Part shown: piece by piece, positions 51,441 through 55,800 of the stretch
How the letters are laid out: every line of letters starts with the position of its first letter
How positions within the stretch are numbered: the stretch's first letter is position 1
Source: Auanema rhodensis
Lineage: Eukaryota > Animalia > Nematoda
Length of the DNA: 64,000 bases
Direction of reading: 5' to 3'
NCBI GenBank assembly: GCA_964057225.1
Contig: OZ059899.1
Location: 10,850,001-10,914,000 of the forward strand
Translations under genes and position numbers: made by a program
The notes under the pieces: generated by a model
The model's database searches: none
What the model saw: the letters and a program-made list of their open reading frames with translations, nothing else
Told to the model about the DNA's origin: nothing

Positions 51441-52793
51441 TTGAGAGAAGAAGGTGATTCCTCTTCTTCTTCTCATTCTTCTTCTCTAACAATTAGAACG
51501 AGAAGTAAAAGCAGAAAGGCCATCACTGAGGAAACACCTCGGGCACCTACTACAGTACGAAATAGATCACCAAGTCGGTGGGCCGCTGCTATAACTAAAG
51601 CTTTTGAAAGAAAAATGACTCCTACCTCTCCATCTCCTAATTCTAATGTTGCTCCACCCTCTAGAAATATGGCAACTATTTTAAATTGCCATCTCTGTCC
51701 CAGGTATGACGGCTCTCGTAGCTTTCGTTCTTTTGTTGAATCTTTAAATAGATTTTTTAATGTTATGAATCTAAGTTTACCTGAGAGACTATTAATTTTA
51801 CCTCTTCTTTTGGAATCAAATGAAACAGCTCTCTCCTTGTATAATAGTATTCCTAGTGGCATAAGAACTAATGGCCCATGGATTGTTTTGATGGATCAGC
51901 TCACTGAGCTTTTAGCGCCTAAAACAGATAAAAATTTCACCATAGCGCTTATTCATCGAATACAACAAGGAGATAAATCTGTTCTCGATTTTAGTATGGA
52001 ATTAGAGAGAATGGCAAGCACCATAATGTCACCAATGGATCCCGAGCGGGAACCAATGTTGAAAACGGCATTTTTAAATGGTTTAAAAGAGGAACTGGGT
52101 ATTGCGGTTTTAACTAAAAACCCCGCCACTTATGAACAAGCTAAGAAATTAGCTAGGTTTGAAGAAGGCGTTCGTAATAGCTTCATGAAAAGAAATGAAG
52201 ACACCAGCACCTTGAAGGAGCTCATAAATGCTTTACAACATAAATTAAGCTTTAGTGAAGAAAGAGAAAGAAGTAGGAATAATAATAATAATAAAAATTA
52301 TAAAAATAATAAAAATAATAAAAAAAATAATAACTGGACTCAGCACAATAATGGCTCTAATGATTATGAGCGAGAGAGAGAGCGACCTTCTGCCGTACGT
52401 TATAATAATAATAACTCGCAGAACGGGAATATGAATAGGCGTCCTAACCCGGGAAACCGCCCATTTGCCAATGGCAGAAATGCCAATAGCTCGTCTTGGA
52501 ACCCTAGGCCTAGTTCCCCAAGAAGACAAAGACCATCAGCCAATGGGAATGGTAACTCAAGGGTATACAGCGTAGCGACCCCATTCATGCCACCGGTCAC
52601 GTTGTGCCTGACTTTATTGGCACTCTCATGCCTTCCCTTTGGGTCGGCAAAATATCAGATCTGCGCTCAATCTGAAGGGGGTATATTAGTAACACCTCCT
52701 GTGGTCACAGGCTGCCATAAGGCAGAAATTGAAAAGGCTCACAGTGTTGAGGTAGAAATATATCTACCAAAGGCTGAGATAGAGTCATGGTAA
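51441..52793 (+). CDS. gag: B5 Gag + Env signal peptide (premature TAA 52791-52793; first ATG at 51615)
   Basis: Retrotransposon capsid motifs, Asn/Arg-rich region, no CCHC; GAA or AAA in other copies is TAA here. Confidence 0.9.
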   Translation: MREEGDSSSSSHSSSLTIRTRSKSRKAITEETPRAPTTVRNRSPSRWAAAITKAFERKMTPTSPSPNSNVAPPSRNMATILNCHLCPRYDGSRSFRSFVESLNRFFNVMNLSLPERLLILPLLLESNETALSLYNSIPSGIRTNGPWIVLMDQLTELLAPKTDKNFTIALIHRIQQGDKSVLDFSMELERMASTIMSPMDPEREPMLKTAFLNGLKEELGIAVLTKNPATYEQAKKLARFEEGVRNSFMKRNEDTSTLKELINALQHKLSFSEERERSRNNNNNKNYKNNKNNKKNNNWTQHNNGSNDYERERERPSAVRYNNNNSQNGNMNRRPNPGNRPFANGRNANSSSWNPRPSSPRRQRPSANGNGNSRVYSVATPFMPPVTLCLTLLALSCLPFGSAKYQICAQSEGGILVTPPVVTGCHKAEIEKAHSVEVEIYLPKAEIESW

Positions 52794-52808
52794 GCATGGA
52801 AATGCTAT

Positions 52809-55800
52809 GTGAAAAAGTATAAAAGCTGTGTGAGAGATTTCATGTTTTTGAGAGATCGTAACACCACATTCTCTCATATTGAAACAGTAGATAAGAAAGA
52901 TTGTGTTCGAGCACATAGAAATCGTATGTGGAATGATAAAATCATGAATGCCCAACAGCATTCAGTTTTTGAAACACCATTAAACGAGCATAATCCAACT
53001 CGCTCTTGGTCCACTGAAGAATGTGTAGAAATTGAACAATTTGTATTGAAGCGAGGGATAATAACTAGATTGAAAGAAGATCACATTGTATCAGACTTAT
53101 TTATAAATACTGATAATTGTAAAGGAAATGAAGGGTTTTGTGCAACTGGTGAAGGTGCAGTTATCTGGCAACCACCTATCCCATCAGTTGTCTGTCACTA
53201 TCAAAAACTTGGCCCCTTCTCCGCCATGTTGGGTGATCATATTCTTCTAGTTCACTCTATTGAAAGCGCTTTTGTTCTCCAAAATCATTCCACATCCGCT
53301 CACGTTCAATCTTGTTTCGAATTCGCTGTTTTTGAATCATCTTCTGAGGCAATTATCCGATTCACAGCATATCCCCGTGTTTATAATTTGCTTGATCTTT
53401 CCAATACTTTGCTTAATGCTGATAGACGCAGAAATAAACGTAATGCATTACCTCAAAAACATCGCTCTTTCAGTGATGATTATCTTTTTGTTAATGCGAA
53501 ATCCCAACCATATGCGTTTCCATTTCTAAGACCTACTTTCATTTTTGGATCTGCATCTATCACTAAGTTTTACGCAAAATATATGAGATATGCAGCTACA
53601 TCATCTTATGAGAGTTTGCTCCAATTCGCGATAGATAATCCACTGTTCATTGACACAATTGTTAGTTTAGGATTGACAAAAGATCACATAACTAACTGGG
53701 CAAAGTCTAATAATTTCAAAGATCCCAATCTTTTGATTTTACAATGTATGGGTATAGAGGAAATTAAACTGGCTACTAGACAGATGATTAATAGCATGAA
53801 ATTGGATGATCTTATCACTCAAGTAGCTCGTCGTATAGAAGTTCCTCGGTTAAAAAGATCTTTGATGAAATCTACAACATCCATAGAAGATTTCTTTCGA
53901 GGAATGGCTCACGCAGTAGTATATCAAGCCACAATTCTTGATGGTACACAAACAGTTCCATCAATTGAACAGTTGGCAAGAGCCTTATATCCATCTATAT
54001 TACCACGCAGTGGAAATATGAATCAATCTGAAATTATTGCAACTGCTCAAGGCATGTTATTCATGATCCAACAACAATCGGGAAAAGAACAAATATCTCG
54101 TGACATGCAAGTCAGTCGACAACAAAAAGCTGATGCTACTGTTAGAAATAACCAAGAGCAAGATTTAGCAATTATATCCAAGCTGCCTGACTATCACAAC
54201 CTTTATACAAAGAATAGTACAGCATATTATGGATTTCCTCCACAGTCCATCGAATACCCACAGGAAAATCCTAAATTCAATAAAACAGAAATTTTAGAAT
54301 TCATAAGTTGGGTTAAAACTCAAATCACAACTGATAAAAATATGGTACAGCATACTACTGTAACCCCAATAACTGCCACCAAAACTACAATTCGTAGTTT
54401 AACAACTCCTACCCCTAATGCGTACGAGAGAGGTCGAGAGTTGTATGTAGCAGAAGTATATGACAATGTTCTCCACAAATCAAAGCATAAAACTAAAACG
54501 ATAATAGATAATAAGTTGAATTATGGGTTTGAGAAAGCGCGTCTCTCCATAATTGACGAATTTCATCAACAGTTTCATACCATCTGTAAATCTCAAATGG
54601 AAACTGTAAAAAGCTGGCAAGCTATATTACGTATACATCCTACAATAGGAGTAAGAGCTATGCTTCAGCGGGATGATATCGTTGCCCGATTTGTTGGAAG
54701 AAATGTTTTAAAAATAACAACTTGTCAGGAAATAGAACCACATTTCATTTATCGTAATCATTCTTACAATGATAAATGTTATGCAGAGACCCCTGTTTTA
54801 ACACACGATAAACAATTATTCTTTGCTCCTATCGATAGCTACGATTTGAGCACTGAAGGACATGAGATCAATTGTGAACACAAAGAGACAGAGATTTGGT
54901 ATGAAAATGGAACATGGAGAGATTATAAAGGTGACACACATAAAGTAGATAGTATTCATTCAGAAAAACATGATCATTATGCTGAATTGAGTAAACTTCG
55001 ATTCACAGGGCGGAATTTGTTTGAAAATTCGACTGAAAAATCCTTAGCCCTATCTATTGGATTAACTTATGGTTATAGTTTATCTACTTCACCTCACCAT
55101 GATCTTCTCCGCGTAATTTCTCGTTCACGTGATTGGCCTCAAATTTCCTCTTTCATCTTCAAAGGAAGTAAACTTATAAGAGATGCCAGGAAAATTGTTT
55201 TCTCCAATTGGGATCTGTTCATTGACTTTTGTATAGGTTCAATTGAACGAACACTCATTACCATCGGTTGTATAACTCTGATATTATGTCTAATGATAGC
55301 ATTATATTTCACTATAAAATGTTATCTCTCCCCTACTTCTATGTTAAAAATAAACCATATCATGTTGAGCCCAACAGCTCCACCACTTGAGGGAGATGAG
55401 ATTCATGAAACAGTTAGTGATGAATTGATGCGGAGCTATTTTCCCACCATCATAACTTACATTCCTTTAGCCATACCTTTTGTATGTCACACAACAACAA
55501 AGAAAAATGGACACATGTTACCGTTTGTTCATATTGACATTGCAGGTAGAGGACTGTTAGCATTATGGGATTCTGGAGCTACGGTCTCATATATTCCGTT
55601 CTCCACATTAGCATATATTGGAAGACAATATTTTACAAAATATTCTAAATCTGCATCCACTGCAAATGGATCAGAGTTTCGCTTTGTGGGAAAATGCAAG
55701 TTAGATGTGGGTATAGCAGGTTACCAAGTGGAACACGAATTTTTAATATCTGAAGACAATGACTGTCCAGGACAAATGTTACTTGGTACTGATTTTATGC

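Follow-up and report, generated by a model that had tools for sequence, protein, structure and literature searches.

A GAG-ENV-POL gene order with an env of the herpesvirus glycoprotein B (gB) type has been reported in Nematoda, Bryozoa and Platyhelminthes (Chary and Hayashi, eLife 2026, PMC13524379). These elements are called 'ancient errantiviruses', and that paper cites Sacco et al. 2022 (J Gen Virol 103:001739) for non-canonical nematode retroviruses in which env and pol are flipped. Here we describe an element of this kind in a 64,000-nucleotide stretch of DNA from the nematode Auanema rhodensis (assembly GCA_964057225.1, contig OZ059899.1, positions 10,850,001 to 10,914,000 of the forward strand). 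This whole stretch is called the window, and all coordinates below refer to it. The element is a young long terminal repeat (LTR) retroelement of 10.1 kb on the plus strand (49909-60034), a provirus of the Ty3/gypsy type in which gag, env and pol follow one another in a single reading frame. The flipped nematode retroviruses of the earlier report are also said to carry a continuous gag-env-pro-pol frame.

Splicing is known from two other retroelement systems that bear comparison with this locus. The Cer1 element of Caenorhabditis elegans, as described in PMC10309623, produces a five-exon cerv mRNA through ordinary worm splice sites such as TTTCAG, and foamy viruses make Pol from a spliced subgenomic mRNA according to the account in PMC7828637. 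For the GAG-ENV-POL elements, the stem 'splic' is absent from the main text of PMC13524379, and that text does not address the question of the gag/env/pol product ratio in single-frame retroelements. This paper was the only relevant result of a literature search for nematode gag-env-pol endogenous retroviruses. While the GAG-ENV-POL layout is already in print, what is new is that contigs of a single study, taken to be RNA by guess, show a canonical splice which links the leader to the env/protease border. A working acceptor located exactly at this border is a concrete and testable handle on the product ratio.

Splicing from the leader to the env/protease border

Four sequencing runs of one study (X1-X4), kept as contigs and taken to be RNA by guess, were mapped onto the studied copy and onto a second copy on the opposite strand. 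Such contigs show presence and not absence, and they cannot show transcript ends. Contigs of three of the four runs (X1, X2 and X4) were found to join position 51368 to 55471, and they do so on two copies of the element. The skipped 4102 nt have GT at the 5' boundary (AG|GTACGC) and AG at the 3' boundary (CCTTTAG|CC). The leader donor (51367-51374, plus strand; exon end 51368, GT at 51369-51370) is identical in all four copies and is located 247 nt upstream of the first in-frame ATG of gag (51615). The acceptor AG occupies 55469-55470 on the plus strand and the exon starts at 55471.

When skips were placed at random within the element, a GT..AG placement was possible in 649 of 200,000 cases (0.3%), and this fell to 20 of 200,000 (0.01%) when an equal site context was asked for. 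Since the joint found in three of the four runs has canonical ends that could be placed in only 0.3% of random skips, AG 55469-55470 is a true splice acceptor, partnered with the leader donor. The rarity of canonical ends with good context further means that the spliceosome made the 51368|55471 junction at some time. The joined RNA lacks both gag and env because the leader donor sits upstream of the gag start, and it is out of the gag frame, since 4102 nt cannot be divided evenly by three. The open reading frames (ORFs) after the joint are short, the longest having 61 to 77 codons, and they are formed by integrase C-terminal codons or by a 43-codon ORF at 59383-59514.

The same contigs carry a second skip of 3291 nt in pol (1097 codons, in the pol frame), with non-canonical ends located inside a 17-nt imperfect repeat. 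The 5' box of this repeat (55497-55513, plus strand) forms the left edge of the skip and the 3' box (58788-58804, plus strand) the right edge; the two boxes are alike at 15 of 17 positions, and the joints observed are 55496>58788 and 55513>58805/58847. We considered this skip as a splice and rejected it, as the ambiguity range holds no GT..AG placement and the crossover point within the repeat differs between X1 and X2. For these reasons it is read as a deletion, at the level of DNA or of reverse transcription. All three DNA-level deletions in the window copies resemble it. The 3' box, ACAAAGAAG, was observed to be the edge of an independent DNA deletion as well, in the copy at 22980-23025, and may be a deletion hot spot.

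A third skip covers 40 nt (58808-58847, plus strand; ..CG|GTACAA...AATTCAG|GT). It is skipped in a contig of X4 and kept in a loose end of X1, and of its four equivalent placements, one has GT..AG ends and the acceptor AATTCAG|G. This segment lies inside the integrase C-terminal codons, where its removal would shift the pol frame. It is apparently a mini-intron of nematode size that is used in some molecules only.

Three further features of the leader were noted. The gag frame is open for 107 codons 5' of the first ATG (51294-51614), and the leader donor falls within this open part. We also considered a short intron within the leader, reaching from 51369 to about 51445, and rejected it, since it would end in GAG, a poor acceptor. 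In addition, the leader of every copy holds TTAATTACCCAA, located at 50351-50372 in the studied copy and at 16440-16451, 29341-29352 and 47685-47696 on the minus strand, which makes four matches where 0.05 are expected. We take this sequence to be the core of the nematode trans-spliced leader SL1. It stands about 60 nt into the transcript, 3' of the 5' LTR and away from the RNA end.

The limits of the contigs bear on the kind of the runs. For contigs anchored in the leader, the first base falls at 50165-50204, which is 256-295 nt inside the 5' LTR; for those anchored upstream, the last base falls at 59866-59885, which is 211-230 nt inside the 3' LTR. No contig of the four runs fitted both LTRs. 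Together with the two splice-type junctions, these are weak hints that the runs are RNA. The depth was 0 in all four runs over the satellite bins 1-667 and 19344-20000 and over nearly all of a second element of the window (957-6829), which is uninformative for DNA versus RNA.

The joined form could instead be a genomic deletion derivative, possibly of a spliced RNA that was once reverse-transcribed, with no splicing at present and with contigs that read either DNA or its transcript. Internal deletions are common (two of the five mapped window copies, B2 and B4), the same contigs carry the 3291-nt deletion that is clearly no splice, and the runs are taken for RNA by guess. However, canonical ends with good context in only 0.01-0.3% of random skips speak for a spliceosomal origin at some time, and the use of the 40-nt GT..AG skip in X4 but not in X1 looks like alternative splicing. 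Furthermore, neither junction 24-mer had a match on either strand of the 64-kb window DNA in a search for env-less copies, and the lack of a contig with both LTRs also stands against a genomic form. We therefore regard this explanation as rather unlikely. A genomic origin is possible for the joined molecules of today, but not for the origin of the junction.

The continuous frame and its relatives

One frame spans 51441-59048 and takes in gag, env and pro-pol with a single stop. This stop (52791-52793, plus strand) is located inside env and is private to the studied copy; a sense codon is found in all three other copies that hold the place. A sister copy on the minus strand (41773-46863) has 1696 uninterrupted codons from gag through env to the protease (PR).

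Env begins in the gag frame with a predicted internal signal peptide (52587-52649, plus strand; ATG at 52587), which is followed by the ectodomain, membrane anchor and tail (52650-55454, plus strand). Within it are a basic RRRNKR site (53424-53441), the anchor itself (55254-55316) and a KINHI motif (55347-55361). As judged from profile and feature matches, env is a fusion glycoprotein of the class III kind (gB/Monjiviricetes type). Env alone scores 22 bits against Glycoprotein_B of herpesvirus gB, below the cut-off of 43. It is homologous to the env of the second window element (E 9e-69 for an alignment that takes in the protease), and the latter scores 57.8 bits against Monjiviricetes_fusion, where the cut-off is 27. 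Atlas feature matches of 0.92-0.93 point to the class III fusion kind for env, and the env parts of relatives carry PF24664 and PF00606.

Relatives were collected by a protein search with the pol part, for which 120 matches were listed. The closest proteins among these belong to rhabditid and other nematodes (Caenorhabditis nigoni, C. auriculariae, C. remanei, C. brenneri, C. japonica, Diploscapter, Auanema, Heterorhabditis and Ancylostoma) and share 33-50% identity in pol. Of the 120 relatives listed, 22 have an env-like part ahead of pol within the same protein; they come from Caenorhabditis, Diploscapter, Auanema, Ancylostoma and others, and BLAST showed gag, env and pol to be collinear in four of these 22. 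No relative among the 120 joins gag to the protease without env; P0048, the sole gag-pol protein without env among the matches listed, also lacks the protease and half of the reverse transcriptase (RT). A search for homologs of the env part at fused lengths returned none at E <=0.001. DNA of relatives was sought in metagenome contigs (164 pattern matches) and in viral contigs (88 pattern matches), and none was confirmed in either.

The second window family, 28% identical over env and protease, likewise has the env anchor and the protease in one uninterrupted frame. Because the continuous frame is shared by distant relatives and by this family, it is, by these protein comparisons, old and conserved. 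In addition, methionine was not found directly before the hydrophobic core of the signal peptide in any of eight relatives, and four of the eight have none within the core. Without a conserved start codon of its own, env would therefore most simply be made as part of a polyprotein. A separate env mRNA through AG 52570-52571, 16 nt before the signal-peptide ATG, was considered and left aside: its tract is poor and the relatives have no start codon there.

The codons at 55455-55487 (plus strand) around the acceptor encode the conserved peptide TYIPLAIPFVC. They are pyrimidine-rich and form the acceptor tract, and the peptide itself is a candidate protease site. In an alignment of 14 sequences, five close relatives keep it as [TS][YF][IV]P[IL]x[IL]P[LF][IV], and the more distant sequences show Y-P or Y-x-P. 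At the protein level, an AG at the same codon boundary appears impossible in four of six close relatives, where the second residue is I or L. The second window family has a 10-residue gap at the acceptor site, and its gag end is missing.

The GT and AG around env

A preliminary description of this locus, made from the sequence alone, had proposed that env is a retained intron. A splice of 52551 to 55471 would give an in-frame Gag-Pol and the unspliced RNA would give Gag-Env-Pol, so that intracellular and enveloped forms would come from one locus. The two sites were found as it had placed them. The GT is located at 52552-52553 (plus strand) in the donor-like context AATG|GTAACT, with the exon end 52551 at a first codon base and 35 nt before the signal-peptide ATG at 52587. 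The AG at 55469-55470 has the context TTACATTCCTTTAG|CC and lies after the membrane anchor and before the DSGA of the protease. The span 52552-55470 comprises 2919 nt, or 973 codons, and its removal leaves the gag frame running into pol. Both sites are also present in all four copies that hold them, as compared over 30- to 40-mers, with three copies identical and one with two mismatches 5' of the AG. These copies are 98.7-99.4% alike, and at about 99% likeness the identity of the sites is weak evidence.

The same description had cautioned that a frame match arises by chance one time in three, and our count agrees with this. The 11 GT in 52230-52600 and the 10 AG in 55340-55530 form 110 pairs, of which 39 are in frame. 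Among the 11 GT of the gag tail, that at 52552 comes closest to a donor (five of seven consensus positions), and the AG has the richest pyrimidine tract of the 10 (11 of 15). Over the longer region 51300-55440, seven of 171 GT score as high as GT 52552.

What the contigs uphold of this proposal is the acceptor, since those of three runs end an intron at this AG. The donor and the function are not supported; the sole partner seen for the acceptor is the leader GT. The 52551|55471 junction is not among the joints of the contigs, which leave 52275-52950 uncovered, cover most of env sparsely and drop rare forms. The two sites are in place, in the same phase and each the best of its region, and the AG does act as an acceptor. 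Against this, the frame match is expected once in three, the tract before the AG codes for a conserved peptide (through its Y, I, P, L and F codons), and, at the protein level, four of six close relatives appear unable to have the AG at that codon boundary. The splice would also leave none of the three candidate protease motifs that lie between Gag and PR, and the listed relatives offer no gag joined to protease without env, P0048 being a protein that has lost the protease too. Translation of a single polyprotein moreover accounts for the continuity of the frame in distant relatives with no splice needed. We thus consider the retained intron improbable, and an env-skipping Gag-Pol splice is without direct support. 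If it were true, the choice of splice would let one provirus switch between an intracellular retrotransposon and an enveloped virus.

A proposed polyprotein with a side splice

The explanation that we favour, at somewhat better than even chances, is that unspliced RNA is translated into one Gag-Env-Pol polyprotein which is cut by proteases, and that the splice from the leader to 55471 is a side reaction. The signal peptide of env would act internally, such that Gag and Pol stay cytosolic and the Env ectodomain enters the endoplasmic reticulum (ER). Signal peptidase would cut after the signal peptide, and a furin-like enzyme would cut at RRRNKR. On the cytosolic side, the element's own protease may cut at RVYSV before the signal peptide and at KINHI and TYIP after the anchor. 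As for the splice from the leader to the pre-protease site, the host spliceosome would here act incidentally on coding sequence that is rich in pyrimidines. The resulting RNA is without gag and env, and the splice is seen on a non-autonomous derivative with a deletion in pol. Even as a mere side reaction, the splice would show how host splicing can give rise to non-autonomous derivatives without gag and env.

The candidate sites on the two sides of env resemble each other. RVYSV (52560-52574) and KINHI (55347-55361, both plus strand) belong to the motif class [IVL][NY][ASQH][IV], which occurs exactly twice in the 1696-residue sister copy, once immediately ahead of the signal peptide and once immediately past the anchor. 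Similar [IV]N[ASQ][IV] motifs were observed at both places in the relatives P0001, P0002, P0003 and P0005. We propose as a hypothesis that these motifs and Y-[IV]-P are sites of the element's protease.

Several points weigh against a polyprotein with a side splice. The flanking motif class was defined post hoc, once the two sites were known. The polyprotein, its membrane topology and all of its cleavage sites are predictions from sequence, and the runs are RNA by guess, belong to a single study and are kept as contigs that lose rare forms. GT 52552 is the best-looking GT of its region and is matched in phase to a working acceptor. Finally, the acceptor lies 45 nt before an in-frame methionine at the start of the protease, which raises the possibility of a purposeful pol mRNA.

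In that case the splice from the leader to 55471 would serve to make a subgenomic pro-pol mRNA, with Pol produced apart from Gag and Env in the style of foamy viruses. The position of the donor in the 5' untranslated leader fits this, as does the place of the acceptor 5' of ATG 55515, which opens the pol frame at the protease start, and the spliced Pol mRNA of foamy viruses is a precedent. However, ATG 55515 is the third after the joint; the out-of-frame ATGs 55484 and 55507 precede it, and the latter is found in an A-rich AAAATGG context. Methionine at that column is present only in the studied element, and two of six close relatives have one within 10 residues. Furthermore, the conserved continuity of the env-pol frame would be needless, and the joint was seen only on RNA that is missing 3291 nt of pol. 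A purposeful pol mRNA is thus unlikely, though we would keep it in mind. We hold it to be quite improbable that one acceptor pairs either with the leader donor, for a foamy-like pol RNA, or with the gag-end donor, for a Gag-Pol without Env, such that the provirus switches between intracellular and enveloped forms.

Structure of the provirus

The 5' LTR has 380 bp (49909-50288, plus strand) and is repeated as the 3' LTR (59655-60034, plus strand), which is preceded by a G-rich purine tract. The two LTRs differ at one of 380 positions. The element is flanked by the 4-bp direct repeat CTAT (49905-49908 and 60035-60038), a target-site duplication (TSD). Directly 3' of the 5' LTR is a putative primer-binding site (PBS) that starts with TGG (50289-50305, plus strand), as read from the sequence.

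The gag gene (51615-52586, plus strand) has in-frame ATGs at 51615 and 51669, the second of which aligns with the start of the relative P0001, and it ends in a basic tail rich in N and G. Its domain scores 21.9 bits against Retrotrans_gag, below the cut-off of 24.1, and a match to Ty3_capsid is likewise weak and below its cut-off. The identity to the gag of P0001 and P0003 is 30%.

In pro-pol (55470-59048, plus strand), Pfam finds the protease, reverse transcriptase, RNase H and integrase in the Ty3/gypsy order. The E-values are 2.7e-35 for RVT_1, 3.9e-32 for RNase H, 1.7e-14 for rve and 2.5e-07 for the aspartyl protease, whose DSGA is located at 55569-55580. All of the bit scores lie over the cut-offs (RVT_1 122, RT_RNaseH_2 111, rve 54, Integrase_H2C2 53 and gag-asp_proteas 31.6). 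The stretch of the 43-codon ORF at 59383-59514 was observed to be 95-97% alike between copies, which is lower than in the rest of the element.

Surroundings in the window

Five copies or fragments of the studied family, 95-99% alike, are found in the window between arrays of a 667-bp satellite (1-700, 19396-22026, 34923-41211, 48030-49980, 60149-62110 and 63304-63932). The satellite comprises 22 units, mostly 95-100% alike, and it flanks every copy of the element. This suggests that the element was inserted into satellite DNA or was amplified together with it.

The second element belongs to a divergent family and is truncated at its 5' side (957-6829 and 16862-18846); it has the same continuous frame from env to protease. 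It is interrupted by an inserted full copy of the first family (6760-16805, minus strand). Between two satellite arrays lies a 402-codon frame on the minus strand (62035-63243) that matches RVT_1 (E 3.5e-28) and is a fragment of another retroelement.

Comparison with known systems

The studied element shares with the GAG-ENV-POL errantiviruses a Ty3/gypsy pol, a gB/class III env between gag and pol, a nematode host and several near-identical copies with LTRs. The features that define such a Ty3/gypsy nematode retrovirus were all found here, namely the order of the pol domains, the class III env, the gene order, and the LTRs with TSD, PBS and purine tract. The element is a GAG-ENV-POL endogenous retrovirus of the already known nematode kind. 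It shows no structural difference from that kind, whereas the spliced RNA found here has no description in the main text of PMC13524379.

Cer1, in the account of PMC10309623, is similarly a nematode Ty3/gypsy element with a long gag-pol frame and with working splice sites on its genomic RNA that join 5' parts to the 3' end. It differs in being described there without env and in that its spliced RNA codes for an export factor of 517 residues. In contrast, the spliced RNA of the studied element has no convincing ORF, and one of its joints is no splice.

The likeness to foamy viruses, as these are presented in PMC7828637, lies in a leader donor that is joined to an acceptor just 5' of pol, such that gag is bypassed. 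Their order is however gag-pol-env, and their Pol is described there as never fused to Gag. In the studied element, pol shares its frame with env and gag. A leader donor joined to a pre-pol acceptor was seen in three of the four runs, of a kind that is guessed, whereas a conserved AUG of its own was not found for Pol, as the methionine after the acceptor is not conserved.

In the flavivirus C-prM-E and alphavirus C-E3-E2 polyproteins, the frame of a cytosolic capsid continues into a signal sequence and a membrane glycoprotein, and host signal peptidase together with a viral protease sets the products apart. These are RNA viruses without reverse transcription and differ in this from the studied element. 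By a likeness drawn from sequence only, the polyprotein that we favour for the studied element would follow the same logic.

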